DNA from: Nitrososphaeria archaeon
Lineage (GTDB): Archaea; Thermoproteota; Nitrososphaeria; JACIWG01
DNA: 64,000 bases
Direction: 5' to 3'
Assembly: GCA_050011875.1 (NCBI GenBank)
Contig: JBEKIG010000006.1
Coordinates: 32,001-96,000 of the forward strand
Shown: positions 26,882 through 64,000 of the stretch, piece after piece
How positions within the stretch are numbered: the stretch's first letter is position 1
Layout of the letters: the number at the start of each line of letters is the position of its first letter
Notes under the pieces: model-generated
Database searches by the model: none
Told to the model about the DNA's origin: nothing
Seen by the model: the letters and a program-made list of their open reading frames with translations, nothing else
Translations under genes and position numbers: made by a program

Positions 26882-27385
26882 ATGGGTTCAAAATCAAAGC
26901 CGACTACCGCTTACGTATTATCGCTTATTTCTGGGGTTCTGATTTTTATAGGAGGCATATGTAACTTAATAGTCAGTGTTTTAGTAAGAGCCTACATTAG
27001 AACATTTTTAGGCCGATACAGACCGCCGTTGATGCTGATCTGGCGACCCGGTTTGGGTATTGTATGGAGCATAGTTGGAATGGCGTTCGGGGTCATCGTC
27101 ATATATTCGGCTTTAATGCTCAACTCGGCACCCAAGAACCATACTATGTGGGGAACGCTCATCTTAGTGTTCTCCCTACTAAGCTTCATGGGTGCTTTAG
27201 CTGGTCTCGGAGCAGGTCTTATCCTTGGAGTAGTCGGTGGTGTTCTAGTGATTAATTGGAAAGAACCTGCCTTAACTCCAACTGCTGTCCTAGGGTTAAC
27301 TGTTAAATACTGCGTACAGTGTGGCCAAGCTATACCCGCAGATGCCAAGTTTTGTCCACATTGCGGAAAAGAGGCACCAGCATAG
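26882..27385 (+). CDS. Multi-pass membrane protein (DUF6114-like) with C-terminal zinc ribbon
   Basis: Gly-rich TM helices and CVQCG...CPHCG. Paralog of 61173-61559. Confidence 0.75.
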   Translation: MGSKSKPTTAYVLSLISGVLIFIGGICNLIVSVLVRAYIRTFLGRYRPPLMLIWRPGLGIVWSIVGMAFGVIVIYSALMLNSAPKNHTMWGTLILVFSLLSFMGALAGLGAGLILGVVGGVLVINWKEPALTPTAVLGLTVKYCVQCGQAIPADAKFCPHCGKEAPA

Positions 27386-28832: not shown

Positions 28833-29858
28833 TTGTTGTCAGCCCAGAAATCTGAGGACGACGGCCTTCAGAAGGAATGGGATGCCGCCAGGGACGTGCT
28901 TAAGGCCTTTGACGACCGTATTGATGCGCTCAGGAGGAATGGTTTCAGTTTCGTCACAGCCCTGTTAGCAGCACAGTCTCTCCTCATCCCTTATGTTGCA
29001 GGAAGCACTGGTAATAGCAGTTCACTTCCAGATAACGTCAAATTCGTTATCGTGTCTGTTACGATGTTGCTCGTATTCACATTGAAGCTAATCGAAGGCG
29101 GGTATCAGTCATTTGAACGTGCAGCAACTACCAGGGCATTAGTTATCGAAAAGAAACTGAATATAGAATTGACTGAAATCATCGACTTAAGATTTAGAAA
29201 GGATCACATCCGATTGTGGATGACTCTCGTATACGTGCTTTTCATAATCGGCGCTCTACTTGTCGGTTGGTTCAGCATCATTGATCCATACTGGAAGAAT
29301 CTTCTCATCCTCTCTACAACAATGGCTATAATCGGCACGGTGGCCCTAAACTGGGTGTTCAATTTGAAGTTCCCCTATGGTGAAGAGGACTGGACAATAG
29401 AGAAGTTGGAATGCGGTCTAAACGACGAAGTCGGAATAACAATGACTAACCTGAGCGGACACAGAGTAATTGAATTGAATGAAGAAGATCTGCTATGGGA
29501 AATCAGACCTGAAGGCTATGATCGTCCGGTCCACATAGAGAAGGCAAAGGTCCATTCTGTAATTCCCCCTAAAGCCTGCTTCACTTGGTCTTGGAAGGTC
29601 AAGAGCGAAGAAGGGTGCCTGCCGGTCGTGCCTGGAGTATATTGGGTATTCCCGACTCAATCCAAAAGAGATGGACGCGAGAGGTATCGGGACTATCGGA
29701 GGCTTGGGGAAGCTCCTCTCACTAATGTGAAGAACAAACTATTGCGAAGAAAAGTCAAGGGGATTCCAATGCCACTCCCAAGAGCGGTTAGAGTCGTAGA
29801 CACATCCAAGACTGAACCAGCCATGGATAACACGAAAGCCCAAGTTCAGACTAATTAA
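28833..29858 (+). CDS. Hypothetical membrane protein (about 4 TM) with soluble beta-rich C-terminal domain
   Basis: 341-aa ORF with hydrophobic segments in the N-terminal half. TTAAATA box about 25 nt upstream of the TTG start. Confidence 0.75.
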   Translation: MLSAQKSEDDGLQKEWDAARDVLKAFDDRIDALRRNGFSFVTALLAAQSLLIPYVAGSTGNSSSLPDNVKFVIVSVTMLLVFTLKLIEGGYQSFERAATTRALVIEKKLNIELTEIIDLRFRKDHIRLWMTLVYVLFIIGALLVGWFSIIDPYWKNLLILSTTMAIIGTVALNWVFNLKFPYGEEDWTIEKLECGLNDEVGITMTNLSGHRVIELNEEDLLWEIRPEGYDRPVHIEKAKVHSVIPPKACFTWSWKVKSEEGCLPVVPGVYWVFPTQSKRDGRERYRDYRRLGEAPLTNVKNKLLRRKVKGIPMPLPRAVRVVDTSKTEPAMDNTKAQVQTN

Positions 29859-31804: not shown

Positions 31805-33043
31805 ATGTCGGAGAAAAGGGCTAAAGTGGGTGTTATTGGATGCGGTTTGATTGGTCAATGGCACCTCCGGACCATCGCGGAATTGCATGCTGGAGGACTT
31901 ATAGAGCTCGCCGCAGTCTGCGACATTGTCGAAGATAGGGCGAAGGCTATTGGCGAGAAGTATCACGTACCCTATTTCACATCAGCAGAGAAGATGTTGG
32001 ACAATGATCTAGACTTCGTATACATTGCAACTGGAGACTTCACTCATCACGCTATAGCGAAGTTGGCGGCCGAGCACGGGAAGTCCGTCCTCGTCGAGAA
32101 GCCATTCGCAATGTCGCTCCCATGCTTCGATATGGTCATAAACGCATGTAAGAAAGCTAGTGTCTACTGGGAGTGTGCTGAGAACTACTGGGGAACGACC
32201 TTGGAGCTGGCTATGAAGAAGGTAATAGACCAAGGTGTGATCGGAGACGTCACTAGGACCTATGCCATTGACCCTTCTCCAGCTATTGGAAAGGGGCCTG
32301 CTTTCAGCGCTCACTCAGCTGCATTTAGACTGCATGACTGGGGTGTGCACCGCATGTCTCAAATACGTAGATTCGCTGGAAGCGACGCCAAAAAAGTCGT
32401 TGCAAAGACGAAGGTCTGTACGCCAGGAGAAGAATTCGATGATTGGGGCCACGCAATCGTGGAATTCGAGAACGGAGCTGTCGGCATCTGCGAGCTCGGA
32501 ATAGGAACAGCGGGCAAGGTCAATTACAGGGAAGTTGTAGGTACAAAGGGAATCATCCACATGCGGGGCATAAGAAACAATGGGCCTACCGAGCTTACAT
32601 TGCTTTCTGAAAATAAAGCCGTGCTCGAGGATAAGAACACGCGCGCGACGATAAGGCGCCCGACGATAAGGAACATCGATATACCTGTACAAACACTGTA
32701 CTGGGCGCCTGGTGCCGTAGCAGACTTGTCCGTCGAGAAGGTTGTAGTGTGGACGGATCCGCCGATCGTCTACGAAAACCCCTATGCCGATGTGGTTTCT
32801 ACAGAGTGGGGTACTGGATTTGCTAACTGTGTGATGAGTATAGCGAATGCTTGTGTCAAGGATAAATCACCAGTCTATGGTATCCAAGGTAGAAAGGATG
32901 TCGAGATGTGCGTTGCCATGTACGAGTCTAGTCTCAAAGGCATGGCGCCAATAAGTCTGCCGATAACGAGCTTGACCTCTTGGGAGCGGAATCTCCACGC
33001 GCTCTACAGGAAGACCTTCGGTAAAGATCCGACAGACGTTTAG
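31805..33043 (+). CDS. Gfo/Idh/MocA family oxidoreductase
   Basis: GVIGCGLIG, VLVEKP and DWGVH motifs. Confidence 0.92.
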   Translation: MSEKRAKVGVIGCGLIGQWHLRTIAELHAGGLIELAAVCDIVEDRAKAIGEKYHVPYFTSAEKMLDNDLDFVYIATGDFTHHAIAKLAAEHGKSVLVEKPFAMSLPCFDMVINACKKASVYWECAENYWGTTLELAMKKVIDQGVIGDVTRTYAIDPSPAIGKGPAFSAHSAAFRLHDWGVHRMSQIRRFAGSDAKKVVAKTKVCTPGEEFDDWGHAIVEFENGAVGICELGIGTAGKVNYREVVGTKGIIHMRGIRNNGPTELTLLSENKAVLEDKNTRATIRRPTIRNIDIPVQTLYWAPGAVADLSVEKVVVWTDPPIVYENPYADVVSTEWGTGFANCVMSIANACVKDKSPVYGIQGRKDVEMCVAMYESSLKGMAPISLPITSLTSWERNLHALYRKTFGKDPTDV

Positions 33044-33422
33044 GAACTCCGGTAAGGAGTAGGGGACCTGCATTTCGGCTCCTTGGGCAAAGTGGCCCGC
33101 TTGCTAATTGAACGCCGTAGGGTCAGCACCGAGTCTTTTGTAAGGGTTTCGGAGTTAAAGCTAGAAGATGGGCATTAATGTTGGTTTGTATTAAAGAAAT
33201 AGAAATTTTGTCATACCAGAGAAGGGGTGACCTTAGGCTCTTTTCCTTAGGGCTTTTCCTAAGGCTTTAAAATACAATATGTCGACAGATAATTTTTCAA
33301 CCATCATCAATTATCAACACCTATAATCAGTAACCATTAGCCAATTACATAATATACAACTTTCTATTCTCCTGAAGTATGACAGTATAGAAACTTTAAA
33401 GTAAAATGGAAAGTATGGTCTG

Positions 33423-35435
33423 TTGTTGCAGACAAAGGAAAAGGAACTAAAAGCTGAAAGAAGATCTAATACTAGTATTCGCGAAATTATCTTAGAGAAC
33501 TTCATGTCATACGAATATGCACGTGTTCCGCTTATCAAGGGATTGAATATCATCTGTGGCCCTAACGGGTCAGGAAAATCCTCCATATTATTGGGGATAT
33601 CCGTTGCAATGGGCCAGATCTACACTGAGCGGTCGAGAAAGTTAAGCGACCTAATAAGGCGCGATAAGGATCTAGGAAGGGTTACAATAGTCTTCGACAA
33701 TAAGCCTGTTGACGGTAAAAGGCCTGTTCCATACTCTAGGTCTGACTCCTTTATGCTCTCCAGATATTTGAGGAAGGATGGGTCGTACTGGTTTGAAGCA
33801 GACTACAAAGAGGTGAGCTCCGCCGAAGTTAAGGAAATCCTGGCGGGTCTGAACATCAACCCAGACAACATGCTGCTAATAATGCATCAGGGTATGGTTG
33901 AAGAATTTGCCATAGTCGACGCAGGGGACAAGTTAAGGATGGTCGAAGAAGTGGTTGGGTTAACGGGATACAGGGAGAAGGTTCTAGACTCCCAGAAAAG
34001 GCTTCAGACTTTGGTCAGCGAAGAGAGCTCAATAAAGCAGCTGATGGGAATGGCTGAAGAGACTTTAACTCATTGGAAGGACGTTTACGCGCGATTCCTA
34101 AAGAAACAGGAGCTTGTTACAAGGAGAGAAGCACTGACCAAAGAAAAGTTCTGGGTTCAAATGGCACGAGTGGAAAAAAGCATCGACGTTACCTTGAACA
34201 GGCTGGATATCAAGAAAAGAGACGTGGGTGAACTCTCATCGAAGGTGAAAGGGTCGGAGGAAAGGTCAAAGAATCTAGAAACGGATTTCCACACGTCATA
34301 CAATCAGCTTAAGAAGTCCTTTAGCGCGTTGACTTTTCTCGGATCCGATAAAAGCTCTTCTGATGCAAGAAGAAAAGCACTTTCTGAGATCATCAAGTCC
34401 TTTGAAATGATATCGAGCACAGTTGAGAAATATCTTGTAAACAGCAGGACCGAAGCAAGCGATCTTAAGACGTTACAAAGGGATCTGACCTTGCTGGTTG
34501 ATTCATGGAATAAAGAAGTGGAAATAGAGGCTCGAAAGGGCGTGGATACGTCTAATGAGATAGAAATGATCGAAAAATCCCTTTCTCAGAATGAAGAGGG
34601 GATGTTCAACCTAGTAAAGGAATACGCGGAAGAAAGTGCGAACCTCACACTTCTATCCTATAAAAGAAAGCAGTTAGAGACAGAGCTGGCTGAACTGGAA
34701 CGAGGTCTTCGAGAACTTAAGGAGGAGTTGGCTGCCCTCGAACTTCAAAAACCATCGATGGAAGCAAGAGTGGCTCCAAATAGGCAGCTGAACGAAATCG
34801 ACTCGGAACTTTCGTCGGTTAACGCGCAGATAGAAGTTTACGCTGATGTGCCGGATGAAGCGAAGAACATATTCGAAACCTATTCGTCTAAGTTCAACGA
34901 ACTGAAGGGGAGGCTGGAACTGGTTCTTGAGAACAAGAAGGTCATCTTGGCAGAACTCGAGGAGAGGAAGAAGGTCTGGCGTGAAGGCATAAACATGGTT
35001 CTTGAGTCCGTGAACCCGGTATATCAGGAAATCCTAAGAGGGCTGAACGCCTTCGGATACATCAGGATCGTCTACGAAGAAGAGTTCGAAAGGACGGGGC
35101 TTGAGCTTCTCATAGGGTTCAGGGGGACAACGCCTGCCATTTTGGACGCGTATACCCTGAGCGGAGGAGAAAGAAGCACAGCTACAATATCGTTCCTGCT
35201 GGCCCTTCAGAGGCTCTCCTCCTCACCTATCGTGGCCGTTGACGAATTCGATGTCCACATGGACCCCATCAACAGAGAGAGAATCTTCAGGTCGATATTC
35301 CAGAGGGCACAGGACGATGAAAAGCAGTACGTGATCATCACGCCGAGCCAAGTCAAGATCATGGGCGAAGACATAAACTACGTTGTTACCCAAACGATCG
35401 AAGGTAAGACGGAGGTCGGTGTAATTGCCAAATGA
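33423..35435 (+). CDS. Short SMC-family ATPase with SMC5/6-type head motifs
   Basis: LENFMS, Walker A GPNGSGKS, Q-loop MHQG, coiled coils, signature LSGGERS, Walker B/D-loop VDEFDVHMD, and QYVIITP. Confidence 0.9.
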   Translation: MLQTKEKELKAERRSNTSIREIILENFMSYEYARVPLIKGLNIICGPNGSGKSSILLGISVAMGQIYTERSRKLSDLIRRDKDLGRVTIVFDNKPVDGKRPVPYSRSDSFMLSRYLRKDGSYWFEADYKEVSSAEVKEILAGLNINPDNMLLIMHQGMVEEFAIVDAGDKLRMVEEVVGLTGYREKVLDSQKRLQTLVSEESSIKQLMGMAEETLTHWKDVYARFLKKQELVTRREALTKEKFWVQMARVEKSIDVTLNRLDIKKRDVGELSSKVKGSEERSKNLETDFHTSYNQLKKSFSALTFLGSDKSSSDARRKALSEIIKSFEMISSTVEKYLVNSRTEASDLKTLQRDLTLLVDSWNKEVEIEARKGVDTSNEIEMIEKSLSQNEEGMFNLVKEYAEESANLTLLSYKRKQLETELAELERGLRELKEELAALELQKPSMEARVAPNRQLNEIDSELSSVNAQIEVYADVPDEAKNIFETYSSKFNELKGRLELVLENKKVILAELEERKKVWREGINMVLESVNPVYQEILRGLNAFGYIRIVYEEEFERTGLELLIGFRGTTPAILDAYTLSGGERSTATISFLLALQRLSSSPIVAVDEFDVHMDPINRERIFRSIFQRAQDDEKQYVIITPSQVKIMGEDINYVVTQTIEGKTEVGVIAK

Positions 35436-36195
35436 TGAAAAGATAGAAAGGGTGCTGAGGGTTGTCGAAGCCCTGAGAACCGTCATTGGAAGCAGCTCCG
35501 ACCCGTTTAACGTCGACGTCAAAGCCCAAGTGGAGACCCTAAGGAAGCTTCTTCCGGAATGGAAGGAGCTCGGAGAAATCCTCATGGACGTCGAAGCGTT
35601 GAACCTGCTGTCGAGGGTCGTTGAGCTTCAGGAAAAATGGGTCAGATACCAGGCGTCATCCCTCTATGTTGACCCACTGCTCGTCGAGTTGAAGATAGTT
35701 GCGTCAGCTCCGGAGAAGCTGGCCGAAGTATTCACGGGGAGCTGGCACCCGATACTCAAGGTGGAACAGGTCTCTACAAGAGAACTGATGCGGGCCGTCG
35801 ACTACTGGAATGTCCTCCTACCCTTGGGGGAGCGGTACAGGGAAGAATTTGGTCAAGAAAGGGGACTTGCCTCTCTGAATGCGATGAGTCTGGTTGAGAT
35901 GAAGGTCTTGACAGAAGAGGAACTCAACAGGAGGATAGAAGAGGTCTACGGGGAGCTGGTTTCTCTGCTCGAGACACAGGGAAAGGTTGACTACTGGAAG
36001 TTCATACGTGGAAAAGACCTGAACGAGACGGTCACAAGGGCCGTGATACTTTCTCATGTAATATCTTCTGGACGCGCAAGCCTAGAGATCAAGCCTCTGG
36101 AAGAGAACATTTTCATCGTAAAGCATAACGCTGACAAGTACCCCAAATCTATGGCGATAGCCATTTCACCGACAAGAGGTGTAAGGGAAGAATGA
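35425..36195 (+). CDS. Kleisin (ScpA/Nse4-like) candidate
   Basis: Overlaps the SMC gene. N-terminal DPFNVDV resembles archaeal ScpA DPW.IDI. Helical N-domain and a C-terminal wHTH-like segment ending LEIKPLEENIFI. Confidence 0.65.
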   Translation: MPNDEKIERVLRVVEALRTVIGSSSDPFNVDVKAQVETLRKLLPEWKELGEILMDVEALNLLSRVVELQEKWVRYQASSLYVDPLLVELKIVASAPEKLAEVFTGSWHPILKVEQVSTRELMRAVDYWNVLLPLGERYREEFGQERGLASLNAMSLVEMKVLTEEELNRRIEEVYGELVSLLETQGKVDYWKFIRGKDLNETVTRAVILSHVISSGRASLEIKPLEENIFIVKHNADKYPKSMAIAISPTRGVREE

Positions 36196-36782
36196 GCGAT
36201 GAAGCAGAAGTAGCGATAAAAACCAAGAAGGCGCTCCAGGTCATACTTACGCCGAAGGCCAGAGCCCCCGGTGTCAAGGGCTGGGAACTGAAAAGGACGG
36301 TTGGGAAAGACTACTACTCAATAATCCAAGTCCTCGGCACTGAGCTGGACAAACTCGGTCTTTTAATTATGGTGGTGGGAGAAACCGGTGAACTGCCCCC
36401 TCAGGCCGAACCCGAACAGCTGGATGATGCGAGGTACTACATAGTATTCAAGGAACCTCTATCAACAAGGGAGGCCAGCCCTTCAGGGATGAGCGTCGAC
36501 GATATGGCCGCGTTAGCGATCACCCTGAGCTATCTGACATCCAAACGAGGAAAGGCGCCTGCGAACGAAGTGGAGAGGATGCTGAAAGATAAGCTGCCAA
36601 AGTGGAAGGTTGAATGGAACATGAGAAGGTTCGTCAGAAAGGGGTACATTATACATAACGATGATGATACACTTTCGATAGGTTGGAGGAGCCTAGTGGA
36701 AGTGGACTTCAAGTCTCTTCTGACATTACTGCTCGCGACTCCACAGGGGGAACCGAAAGAGCAAGAAACAAGTGAATCTTAG
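36192..36782 (+). CDS. KITE (ScpB/Nse1/Nse3-like) tandem winged-helix candidate
   Basis: ATGA overlap with the kleisin-like gene. 196 aa with two apparent wHTH units; the second ends RRFVRKGYI...LSIGWRSLVE, similar to the MAGE/Nse-type G.R..E wing. Confidence 0.6.
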   Translation: MSDEAEVAIKTKKALQVILTPKARAPGVKGWELKRTVGKDYYSIIQVLGTELDKLGLLIMVVGETGELPPQAEPEQLDDARYYIVFKEPLSTREASPSGMSVDDMAALAITLSYLTSKRGKAPANEVERMLKDKLPKWKVEWNMRRFVRKGYIIHNDDDTLSIGWRSLVEVDFKSLLTLLLATPQGEPKEQETSES

Positions 36783-61172: not shown

Positions 61173-61559
61173 TTACACCTTAATGGAGGGTCTCCAGCTG
61201 AGCGCGAAGGCTCCACCGATTATTCCCAATATTGCACCAACAAAAAATCCTCCCATGCCCAAGAAACTGATTATCGAGAAGACGAGTACTATGATGCCCC
61301 AGATGGTATGCTCTGATGGACGCGTATCAAGCATCACCGCAGCGATTATCACAAGTACACCGGACATTAGCCCTATAAGGGAGAGGCCCACCATGGAACC
61401 GAAGGGAAATCCAAAGCCACCCATCATTCCCCTATATCCGCCCATCATACCGAATCCTGTGAAACCGAACATCGAAAACACTGCTCCGCTTAAGACCATT
61501 AGAATGCCACCGATGAGTGACAGTATTGCTGCAAGAGTGGGCCTATTTTCTGAACTCAT
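61173..61559 (-). CDS. Multi-pass Gly-rich membrane protein (DUF6114-like)
   Basis: PTLAAILSLIGG...HTIWGIIVLVFSIISF...GAILGIIGG. Paralog of 26882-27385. Confidence 0.75.
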   Translation of the reverse strand: MSSENRPTLAAILSLIGGILMVLSGAVFSMFGFTGFGMMGGYRGMMGGFGFPFGSMVGLSLIGLMSGVLVIIAAVMLDTRPSEHTIWGIIVLVFSIISFLGMGGFFVGAILGIIGGAFALSWRPSIKV

Positions 61560-62282
61560 TTATCTTACCTAACTCTTGAAGCACGTTCCTAACATAAAAG
61601 ACTTGGCTTTTCCAGTATTAACTTTGATAGTTTTAAGAATACATTTATAGCAAATGTGTGTGTGTTTCAATAATTTTTTATCCTGTATGGTGTCACGATC
61701 TATCCCTCTTTGCATTAAGATAGATGGAACTGAAATGACTTACGACACTAACAAGATGCAGAAAGTCTATTTCACGTGATGACATGAAGTCTCTCAAAAA
61801 GTAAAGAAACAGGTCTCTTAAGGGAGGCCTTACCAAATTTTTTATTAGCAAAAGATGCAAGAGGGACTCGAACCCGTTTAGGTATGAATCCAACCCGGTC
61901 CACTTTCCAGTAAGACATCAATCCTTATGTTGAATTTTTTTCTATAAAATTTAATGTAATTATATAAAGCTGTCATAGCGTCTTCTATCTGCGGGCCCTT
62001 TCTATGATATCGAAATCTTAAAGCTTTTTCTGGGTTCAACTTAAACCTAAACGCCCTTTTTAATCGCTATCTTAGATTTTTAAAAAAATGACCTTCTCTA
62101 ATTTGACGACAGGATGCAGGGTAGAATCCCTACTCTCAGCAGTCGTAAGGCCAGAAGGCTCGTGATCAAGGCGACGGCTGTAGTTGGGCTCGGAGTGAAC
62201 CTTACAATACTCGGTCAGCTCCCCAGCAGCTCCGCGAGTATTTCACCACGACCATGTCGACCCTCTTAAGGAAGCTAGGTGG

Positions 62283-63761
62283 CTACCCTCCTTTTCTCAT
62301 GCTCCCCCGCTGTATGCAAGTGAAGAAGCCCACCGTCGCGATGACTGCGGAAACTATGAAGGCTCTCCTCATGCCCTCGACGAAGGACTCCGCGGCCACG
62401 TTCAGTTGGGGAATCGCCACGCCAATGAACAGCGAAGAAAGAAGGCCCGCGGAGGCTGCGCTGGCCACCACGGCCCCCATCAACGCGAGGCTCAGGGACT
62501 GGCCGCTGAACCTCATCGTAGCTAGCGTCCCGCTGGCGACCCCCAGCCTATCCCTCTCCACCGAGCCCATCACGGCGCTCGTGTTGGGGGAGGAGAAGAG
62601 CCCCATGCCGACGCCTATGACGAGGAGGCCGAGGATCACCTGGGTCAAAGGCGAGGAGAGGCCCAGAGTGCTCATCACGAGGAGCCCTGAGGTGATCAAG
62701 GCCATGCCCAGCGAGCTGAAGCCGCGCGACCCGAACCTGTCCGACAGCCAACCGCTGACGGGAGAGAGCAACGCCATGGAGACCGGCATCACGAGGAGCA
62801 CCAGGCCTGCCCGGAGAACGTCGTATCCAAGGATCCTCTGAAGGTAGAAGGAGATGAAGAAGCTGACCCCGAAGAAGGAGGTGTAGTTAAGCAGGGCCGA
62901 AAGGTTGGCTGCCGCGAATAGTCGATTGCCGGTGAAGAGGGAAAGGTCGAGCATGGCCTTTGTCTTCCTTCCCCTCTCGATGGCGGCAAAGGAAATCAGC
63001 AGGAGCCCGCCGGCCGTCAGTAGCCCGATTATGAAAGGCGTCTCCCAGCCCAAGAAATCCCCCAACGTCAGGCCGACGAGGACGGCGACGAGCCCGGCGG
63101 AGAACGTGCCTGCCCCTAGGAGGTCTAACCCCTTCTTGGAGCCGACGATGGGCGGTTCCTTCAGCTTGATGAGCGCGAGTACTATCACGAGCAGCCCGAT
63201 GGGCACGTTGACGTAGAAGATCGAGCGCCAGCCGTAGGCGAACGTCAGGAAGCCTCCTAGGCTGGGGCCCACCGAGAGACCCACGTAGGTGGACATTGAG
63301 TTGATCCCCAACGCCTTCCCCCTCTCACTCGCAGGGAAGGTGTCCGTGACTATCGCCGTCGACGTGGCCCCTATGAATGCCGCCCCAGCCCCCTCGATGA
63401 CCCTGAACAAGATCAGCTCGGGGCCGCTGGAAGCGTTACCGCAGAGGAAGGAGGCCACCGCGAAGATGGCGAAGCCAGAGACGAAGATCGGCTTCCTTCC
63501 CCTACTGTCGGAGAGCCTCCCCAAGCTCAGGAGGAGCACGGTCAAAGCGACAAGGTACGAAGTAGGTACCCATATGACCGCCTCGTAGCCCATCTTCAGC
63601 CCTTCGGCGATGGAGGGCAGAGAAACGCTCACTATGGTGCTGTCGAGCGGCGCCATGAAAGCCCCGATGGACGTTATCAGGAGCACAATCCACTTGTACA
63701 GCCCCCCCTGTTCTGCCCTCACAAAGTCGCGGTCGACGAGGGAAAAACGCTTCTTTGTCAT
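62283..63761 (-). CDS. MFS transporter, DHA2/EmrB-QacA type (14 TM)
   Basis: LDSTIVSVSLP, GRLSDSRGRK (motif A), WRSIFYVNVPIG and LDL.G motifs. Confidence 0.93.
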   Translation of the reverse strand: MTKKRFSLVDRDFVRAEQGGLYKWIVLLITSIGAFMAPLDSTIVSVSLPSIAEGLKMGYEAVIWVPTSYLVALTVLLLSLGRLSDSRGRKPIFVSGFAIFAVASFLCGNASSGPELILFRVIEGAGAAFIGATSTAIVTDTFPASERGKALGINSMSTYVGLSVGPSLGGFLTFAYGWRSIFYVNVPIGLLVIVLALIKLKEPPIVGSKKGLDLLGAGTFSAGLVAVLVGLTLGDFLGWETPFIIGLLTAGGLLLISFAAIERGRKTKAMLDLSLFTGNRLFAAANLSALLNYTSFFGVSFFISFYLQRILGYDVLRAGLVLLVMPVSMALLSPVSGWLSDRFGSRGFSSLGMALITSGLLVMSTLGLSSPLTQVILGLLVIGVGMGLFSSPNTSAVMGSVERDRLGVASGTLATMRFSGQSLSLALMGAVVASAASAGLLSSLFIGVAIPQLNVAAESFVEGMRRAFIVSAVIATVGFFTCIQRGSMRKGG

Positions 63762-64000
63762 CGCTATCTATCAGATGAACTAAGGCGATAAAAAAGCTTT
63801 GGCCCTTCCTTGCCCTTCACGAGCAATCTGCCCTGCAAGTCGATCTGGGTGGAACGGGCCGAGGTTTCTATTGATAGGCTATTTGCATTATATACTATGC
63901 TATTGGTCTAGACCGAGTTTATGACAACAGGAAGATGGAAGGGTGTAATGGAATTGGTAGGGTTCCTAATACGCTGGAATCCTTCGAGTTCTGATGGTCT

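Follow-up and report, generated by a model that had tools for sequence, protein, structure and literature searches.

The stretch of DNA considered here (hereafter the window) comprises the 64,000 nucleotides from position 32,001 to 96,000 on the forward strand of contig JBEKIG010000006.1 in the assembly of a Nitrososphaeria archaeon (GCA_050011875.1), and it contains three adjoining genes which encode an SMC protein (P0001), a kleisin (P0002) and a KITE protein (P0003). The window sits on contig C6 of a genome of 2.64 Mb that is 97% complete, and the DNA sequencing runs that contain large shares of this genome are peat and soil metagenomes, two of which may be its source, with no RNA run listed beside them. 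The original prediction, which was made from the sequence of the window, described the three genes as same-strand open reading frames overlapping by 11 and 4 nucleotides (nt), and its coordinates proved exact in both the list of open reading frames and the DNA, the first overlap running from the TTG start of the kleisin gene at 35425 to the TGA stop of the SMC gene at 35433-35435 and the second consisting of the ATGA at 36192-36195. No in-frame ATG is found in the DNA ahead of the conserved core of either of the first two genes, and TTG is therefore the first usable start after the upstream stop in both; the lengths of their homologues agree with these starts. We regard it as highly probable that the trio encodes an archaeal SMC5/6-related complex composed of an SMC ATPase, an Nse4-type kleisin and an Nse1/Nse3-type KITE, and the organism carries this complex in addition to a canonical Smc-ScpA-like-ScpB operon.

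The assignment of the first gene begins with its head motifs. The sequences quoted in the original prediction, ENFMS, GPNGSGKSSI, TERSRKLSDLIR, LSGGERSTATISFLLALQ, SSPIVAVDEFDVHMDPINRERIF and QYVIITP, are all found in the translation of the SMC gene and occupy invariant or nearly invariant columns in an alignment of 38 family members, which are 40-97% identical to P0001 and in which the ATPase motifs, including the Walker B glutamate E608, are all invariant. The eukaryotic motifs that had been named for comparison hold for Smc6, the human protein displaying DEFDVYMD and RQFILLTP in the PDB alignments, so that the DEFDV(H/Y)MD and (I/L)TP motifs are common to Smc6 and P0001, but the MDPxN given for Smc5 is only approximate, as yeast Smc5 displays DEINQGMDSRNE, which includes MDSRN, together with SQYFLITP. 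The corresponding motifs of the canonical Smc of the same genome are DEIDAHLD and ILITL. P0001 matches Pfam SMC_N with 115.8 bits against a cut-off of 40, and when it is compared with the PDB by phmmer the top five matches are all Smc5 (1.1e-28 to 2.1e-26), followed by the Smc of Pyrococcus yayanosii (2.9e-22) and by Smc6 (2.3e-18), while Rad50 reaches 1.2e-6 at best. A profile built from the 38 sequences returns Smc5 and Smc6 as all of its top ten matches (6.8e-49 to 1.7e-38). As a control, the 1179-residue canonical Smc of the same genome was searched against the PDB, and it finds archaeal Smc at 1e-88 and Smc5 at 1.5e-7, with Smc6 absent from its best 60 matches. This ranking and its reciprocal control support the notion, already part of the original prediction, that the SMC heads are closer in sequence to Smc5 and Smc6 than to canonical Smc or Rad50, and the best sequence matches of the heads are indeed to the core of the eukaryotic Smc5/6 complex (for instance PDB 7qcd, 7tve, 7ylm and 9lwi).

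The second and third genes had been predicted to encode a kleisin and a KITE, and both assignments held up. For the kleisin family profile the sole significant PDB sequences are yeast Nse4 (8.3e-5) and human EID3/NSE4 (3e-4), the similarity lying in the C-terminal winged-helix region, where profile positions 146-254 align with Nse4 residues 266-371. Furthermore, Pfam Nse4_C is matched by 14 of the 31 aligned kleisin members (1.4e-6 at best) and the same domain (PF08743) is precomputed on five of 35 database relatives of P0002, and the best conserved stretch of the family is formed by the N-terminal 130 residues. Neighbours of P0002 in the ESM Atlas are archaeal clusters, some of them with Nse4_C, and a eukaryotic Nse4 cluster appears at rank 13 (0.90), which we take as a lead only. 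By its family profile, gene 2 is thus supported as an Nse4-type kleisin. The AlphaFold2 (AF2) model of P0003, with a predicted local distance difference test score (pLDDT) of 80.5, consists of two winged-helix domains, and the top five PDB matches of this model in Foldseek are all chains of Nse1 or Nse3(MAGE-G1), at 1.5e-5 to 4.4e-4. Superposition with VIA-align likewise gives the best full-length matches with Nse3/Nse1, at Z scores of 11.3, 9.9, 9.8, 9.8 and 9.6 over 157-176 residues, ahead of JetB (Z 9.0, 161 residues) and ScpB (Z 8.6, 136 residues). The model identifies P0003 firmly as a KITE, and a preference for Nse1/3 over other KITEs is moderately indicated by the same comparison. P0003 has no cysteine at all and can for this reason not contain a RING of the Nse1 type.

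Table 1. Features of the SMC-kleisin-KITE locus. Nucleotide positions are those of the window and residue numbers those of the respective protein.
Feature	Position	Strand	Extent or detail	Basis
TTTAAA, possible archaeal TATA box	33395..33400	+	23-28 nt upstream of SMC TTG	sequence reading
SMC gene (P0001)	33423..35435	+	670 aa, TTG start	open reading frame list
SMC N-terminal head half	33477..33956	+	residues 19-178	motifs, family alignment and AF2 model
Walker A GPNGSGKS			residues 46-53	SMC N-terminal head
R-loop region YTERSRKL				SMC N-terminal head
Q-loop MHQG			residues 154-157	SMC N-terminal head
SMC ascending arm helix	33969..34442	+	residues 183-340 (158 residues)	DSSP on AF2 model
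SMC apex turn, hinge position	34443..34457	+	residues 341-345	AF2 model and conservation
SMC descending arm	34458..35039	+	residues 346-539, helix breaks 442-455 and 473-479	AF2 model
SMC C-terminal head half	35049..35426	+	residues 543-668	motifs and family alignment
Signature LSGGERS			residues 579-585	SMC C-terminal head
Walker B/D-loop VAVDEFDVHMD			residues 604-614	SMC C-terminal head
ITP			residues 639-641	SMC C-terminal head
Kleisin gene (P0002)	35425..36195	+	256 aa, TTG start	open reading frame list
Nse4_C-like winged-helix region	35842..36174 (approximate)	+	residues ~140-250	kleisin profile
KITE gene (P0003)	36192..36782	+	196 aa, ATG start	open reading frame list
KITE winged-helix domain 1	36198..36449	+	residues 3-86	AF2 model
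KITE winged-helix domain 2	36495..36734	+	residues 102-181	AF2 model

The AF2 model of P0001 (mean pLDDT 83.8, with most of the arm helices at 82-89) consists of the head and a single antiparallel helical hairpin which reverses in an apex turn of five residues (Table 1), and no globular hinge is present in it. The ascending arm would be about 23 nm long if its 158 residues are counted as alpha helix at 0.15 nm per residue. Conservation within the SMC is lowest (0.33-0.41 over residues 321-370) around the apex, which is also rich in indels, Pfam SMC_hinge gives no match in P0001 nor is it precomputed on 120 homologues among the matches listed, and a hinge of about 150 residues would find no room, since the approximately 360 residues between the two head halves are all helical. 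The globular dimerising hinge that characterizes SMC proteins proper is thus absent from P0001, and a CxxC of the zinc-hook type is found in the arm of none of the 38 family members. As modelled, the protein is an SMC with neither hinge nor zinc hook and with arms of half length. No statement that archaeal SMC5/6-related proteins are hinge-less was found in the literature searched; in the main texts of PMC8665677 and 10.1101/2024.01.07.573240 the word 'shorter' does not occur and 'hinge' occurs in the introductions only, and the supplements of these papers may cover the matter.

A length of 670 residues and a missing hinge are on the other hand features that resemble the ASRPs (ClsN/coalescin, Sph) and Rad50, and it could accordingly be proposed that P0001 is a repair ATPase of one of these kinds which happens to be followed by two unrelated small proteins. 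Rad50/SbcC, the ASRPs and LmuB do have short antiparallel coiled coils without a globular hinge and a length similar to that of P0001, and among the NCBIfam models both ASRP (3e-18) and Rad50 (5.3e-19) give matches. These matches are however far under the respective cut-offs, with 65.7 of 300 bits for the ASRP model (NF045487) and 67.7 of 700 bits for Rad50, and the Rad50 matches in the PDB are weak (1.2e-6 and worse). In addition, a zinc hook is reported for the ASRPs and Rad50 (PMC9389158), and Rad50/SbcC, the ASRPs and LmuB are described as dimerising by way of it (PMC9389158, PMC10586767), whereas the arms of the P0001 family are devoid of CxxC. Furthermore, Rad50/SbcC, the ASRPs and LmuB are without kleisin and KITE partners, whereas the P0001 family has both and keeps them in synteny in 57 of 59 genomes (see below), and ASRP genes are reported in PMC9389158 to be without conserved neighbours; the same paper sets an SMC5/6-related clade apart from the zinc-hook ASRPs ClsN and Sph. 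We consequently find it extremely improbable that the trio is an ASRP or a Rad50-like ATPase with two unrelated neighbours.

How an SMC5/6-related protein lacking both hinge and hook might pair was approached by modelling two copies of residues 255-432 in ESMFold2 with the family alignment made in this analysis. The pair obtained a score of 0.49 (median of three runs with 0.45, 0.49 and 0.51), as compared with 0.00 for the best of three controls, at least 95% of the contacts were common to the runs and the pLDDT of the partner was at least 79. Of 30 proteins solved as same-chain pairs 20 attain this score, and of 23 solved as single chains one does, counts which hold only roughly here because of the self-made alignment. 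The predicted contacts are the self-pairs 300-300, 315-315, 402-402 and 405-405 and would correspond to outer arms that lie parallel and alongside each other as four packed helices rather than touching tip to tip; the apex of the arm was also examined for a conserved motif for dimerisation, and none was found. Two considerations weigh against the pairing, namely that it was modelled on truncated coiled-coil fragments and may echo the SMC rods already solved, and that the interface is only marginally better conserved (0.523) than the rest of the fragment (0.475), 511 of 10000 random subsets doing equally well. Taken together the models lend modest support to a rod-shaped SMC homodimer.

The gene trio is conserved well beyond this genome. 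Of 201 class genomes sampled, 59 contain the SMC, 58 the kleisin and 59 the KITE, all in the same families. Comparison of the tables shows that, of the 59 genomes with the SMC, 57 have the three genes next to each other in the order SMC-kleisin-KITE and on a single strand, one gene being cut by a contig end in five of these 57. In one of the two exceptions (G017) there is no more than a piece of the SMC gene at the edge of a contig. In a sample of 401 genomes of the phylum, in which the SMC was scored as positive at E <= 1e-25, it is found in 201 genomes, corresponding to 151 of 335 high-quality genomes and 89 of 162 genera, usually at a single locus, and among the matches listed the SMC frames span approximately 550-790 residues, save those cut by contig ends. 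The full trio is present in 27 of the 29 phylum loci examined, one of the other two being cut by a contig end. The trio also occurs in records of metagenome-assembled genomes labelled Thaumarchaeota (L011) and Thermofilales (L012), which were the only family members among the 78 loci of a search by head motifs; since this search drew mostly canonical bacterial SMCs, synteny was counted from the genome samples instead. A canonical Smc locus (L052) gave no match with the kleisin or KITE profile, and the database relatives of P0001 are labelled Nitrososphaeria or Thaumarchaeota. Presence is all-or-none per family, with for instance 24/24 and 17/17 as opposed to 0/115.

Two further observations may be added on this distribution. 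In the family with 0/115 the genomes are mostly about 99% complete and about 1.6 Mb in size, and SMC, kleisin and KITE are all absent from them, and three smaller families of the class are likewise devoid of the whole trio (0/14, 0/5 and 0/2); the pattern looks as though the complex had been lost cleanly and in its entirety from these lineages. A genome of the same class (G030), on the other hand, contains two complete copies of the trio on different contigs, at C17:18052-20937 and C36:6950-9862.

A number of observations nonetheless weigh against assigning the trio to the SMC5/6 branch. In the profile ranking human Smc5 (1.7e-38) ties with the canonical Smc of P. yayanosii (2e-38), and Foldseek with the SMC model places the latter (1.6e-25) just above Smc6 (6.1e-24), which means that the structure search with this model confirms the SMC fold and does not separate Smc5/6 from canonical Smc. 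No NCBIfam model passed its cut-off, the best being SMC_prok_A with 167.5 bits against 729, and the placement with Smc5 and Smc6 appears from the score ranking of hidden Markov models (HMMs) and from published trees. P0002 by itself is without any Pfam match, and for the KITE the sequence matches are weak (Pfam SMC_Nse1 in four and MAGE in three of 33 members, the family profile giving no match among PDB sequences), while the margin of the structural comparison over other KITEs is small (Z 11.3 as against 9.0 and 8.6). Two loci furthermore depart from the common gene order: in the second exception of the class sample (G057) the SMC gene lies at C22:4680-6611 and the kleisin and KITE genes at C60:6347-7649 on another contig, and one locus of the phylum sample (L141 on G387:C29) is without partners within 1.5 kb downstream. 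Both could reflect rearrangement, a missed second locus or mis-binning, the contamination of G057 being 8%.

The canonical operon of the same genome is found on contig C9 (locus L010, 2219-6950, minus strand), where genes with 4-nt overlaps encode a Smc of 1179 residues, a protein of 215 residues at the position of ScpA and a ScpB of 183 residues. The ScpB matches PF04079 with 88 bits, and residues 525-638 of the Smc match hinge structures from T. maritima at 5e-10. The 215-residue protein has no Pfam match at E <= 0.001, and PF02616 (SMC_ScpA) is matched nowhere in the genome; possibly this protein is a ScpA that has diverged strongly. As a complete-looking canonical operon is thus already at hand, and as the arms of P0001 are shortened and its hinge is gone, one might regard the trio as a degenerate and redundant duplicate of Smc-ScpAB without a function of its own. 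Such a degenerate copy would however be in poor agreement with ATPase motifs that are invariant across 38 sequences of as little as 40% identity to P0001, and with intact frames whose order is kept in 57/59 genomes of the class and 27/29 loci of the phylum. The heads of the canonical Smc and of P0001 are 28-31% identical, and similarity of the accessory subunits of the trio to the ScpA-like protein and ScpB of the same genome is undetectable (hhalign probabilities of 1.5% and 0.1%), so that a duplication must be ancient with both copies kept. A functionless duplicate is therefore very improbable.

By Pfam, the genes flanking the trio encode metabolic enzymes, namely an enolase-superfamily enzyme, an aldo/keto reductase, a GFO/IDH/MocA oxidoreductase, a NAD epimerase, a class I/II aminotransferase-fold enzyme and a flavodoxin, and there is no nuclease among them, which agrees with the statement in the original prediction that no nuclease of the JetD/MksG kind lies nearby. 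The two DEAD_assoc (Lhr-type helicase) genes of this genome are located on contigs C4 and C10 and thus away from the trio on C6. The neighbourhood bears upon the proposal that the trio serves in defence, sensing and restricting plasmids or viruses in the manner of Wadjet (JetABC) or Lamassu (LmuB). The proposal stems from PADLOC matches of P0001 with mad3 (3.8e-30, N-terminal head only), LmuB (8.2e-19, full length, 66 bits) and JetC (2.5e-11, coiled coil only), from the fact that JetB is itself a KITE and matches the P0003 model at the Z score given above, and from descriptions in PMC10586767 of LmuB as a protein of likewise about 650 residues whose short coiled coils measure about 20 nm and of eukaryotic Smc5/6 as restricting extrachromosomal DNA. 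P0002 and P0003 have however no PADLOC match, and no effector nuclease or protease adjoins the trio, neither the JetD Toprim nuclease of Wadjet nor the effector LmuA, which together with LmuC accompanies LmuB in Lamassu, being found among its neighbours. The zinc hook, which Lamassu often has, is absent from all 38 members, and the invariant E608 likewise differs from LmuB, in which this position is generally Q according to PMC10586767, so that the E-to-Q exchange in Walker B associated with Lamassu is not present either. Furthermore, a trio that occurs in half of the sampled phylum and is all-or-none per family is unlike patchily distributed defence islands. A mobile defence system is in our opinion improbable, and by analogy with human Smc5/6 a silencing role that requires no nuclease is possible. 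For the SMC5/6-related complex a role in housekeeping genome maintenance, be it in repair, at replication-associated junctions or in chromosome folding, is most likely, and it is favoured over mobile defence because of the lineage-wise, single-locus pattern and because kleisin and KITE are without a PADLOC match.

With regard to expression, the TTTAAA listed in Table 1 could, if it is indeed a TATA box, imply a leaderless or near-leaderless transcript of the trio. Elsewhere in the window an open reading frame of 341 residues (28833-29858, plus strand), situated between genes of sugar-acid metabolism, has predicted membrane-spanning stretches and no Pfam match. Two small glycine-rich and hydrophobic membrane proteins, of 167 residues (26882-27385, plus strand) and 128 residues (61173-61559, minus strand), look related in their core (LIGGIL...SLL/ISFxG...GGxLxxxW), and the larger of them ends in a CxxC...CxxC tail resembling a zinc ribbon. 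The end of the window (62001-64000) has a G+C content of 0.57 as compared with about 0.42 elsewhere, and an explanation as ribosomal RNA was rejected, since the region holds a gene for a multi-pass, transporter-like protein of 492 residues (62283-63761, minus strand) and the Rfam scan was empty; Rfam and tRNA scans gave no matches in the window as a whole.

The original prediction had cautiously held that the lineage may not be new, which proved to be an understatement, as the operon itself has already been published (PMC8665677 and 10.1101/2024.01.07.573240). Yoshinaga and Inagaki (2021; PMC8665677) report 'SMC5/6-related aSMC homologs' in TACK archaea, including Thaumarchaeota, as the sister of eukaryotic Smc5+6, and according to van Hooff, Raas, Tromer and Eme (10.1101/2024.01.07.573240) two operons are present in many TACK and Asgard archaea: besides one related to condensin/cohesin there is one related to SMC5/6, whose kleisin is Nse4-related and whose kite is Nse1/3-like. 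The latter authors infer homodimers, describe the archaeal kites as being without RING, and single out the SMC5/6-related complex for experimental characterisation. The present locus has the same three subunit types in the same order, a second canonical operon and an inferred SMC homodimer, and it differs in no kind from the published archaeal operons; it is as such a further member of a published family and adds nothing to the catalogue. No functional study of an archaeal SMC5/6-related operon was found in the literature searched.

The SMC-kleisin-KITE operon architecture is likewise the same as that of canonical Smc-ScpA-ScpB, from which the trio differs in that the canonical Smc has 1179 residues and a hinge, whereas P0001 has 670 residues and none. 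The core of eukaryotic Smc5/6 is alike in its Nse4-type kleisin C-domain and in its Nse1/Nse3-type tandem winged-helix KITE, but it is built from the pairs Smc5 and Smc6 and Nse1 and Nse3, whereas the operon provides one SMC gene and one KITE gene. The eukaryotic SMC proteins furthermore have about 1100 residues and a hinge, and eukaryotic Nse1 has a RING, neither of which applies to P0001 and P0003. In the eukaryotic holocomplex the SUMO ligase Nse2 sits on the arm and Nse5/6 are present in addition; Nse2, Nse5 and Nse6 are not encoded in the operon, as judged by a Pfam scan of its neighbours, no genome-wide search having been made.

A homodimeric complex is the simplest reading of the locus, since it provides one SMC gene and one KITE gene. 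By analogy with Smc-ScpAB, MukBEF and Smc5/6, a pair of SMC molecules would form a head dimer that sandwiches ATP, a single kleisin would link the two heads by binding one at its neck and the other at its cap, and a KITE dimer would sit on the middle of the kleisin, resulting in a 2:1:2 assembly. Such a complex may go through an ATP-driven cycle in which DNA is clamped or entrapped, and the SMC pair could be held together by the kleisin-KITE bridge and by the parallel packing of the outer halves of the arms. It is tempting, though at this stage rather doubtful, to suggest that the Thermoproteota lineage as a whole represents a hinge-less 'mini' SMC, in which a rod of parallel arms leaves the head-kleisin-KITE part as the sole closed compartment for DNA, and which would thus function as an ATP-gated clamp and not as a hinge-closed ring or a long-range loop extruder.

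The canonical function of eukaryotic Smc5/6 is still debated. The complex of the Thermoproteota, which appears to be uniformly small, hinge-less, homomeric and RING-free, and whose operon is without SUMO-ligase and Nse5/6 parts, may offer a stripped-down system in which DNA clamping by head, kleisin and KITE can be studied without the eukaryotic additions, and it prompts one to ask how an SMC complex can operate when it has no hinge. If the suggestion of a hinge-less clamp is true, it would bear on the function of the ancestor of eukaryotic Smc5/6 and would provide a small, homomeric and possibly thermostable model for Smc5/6 biochemistry.

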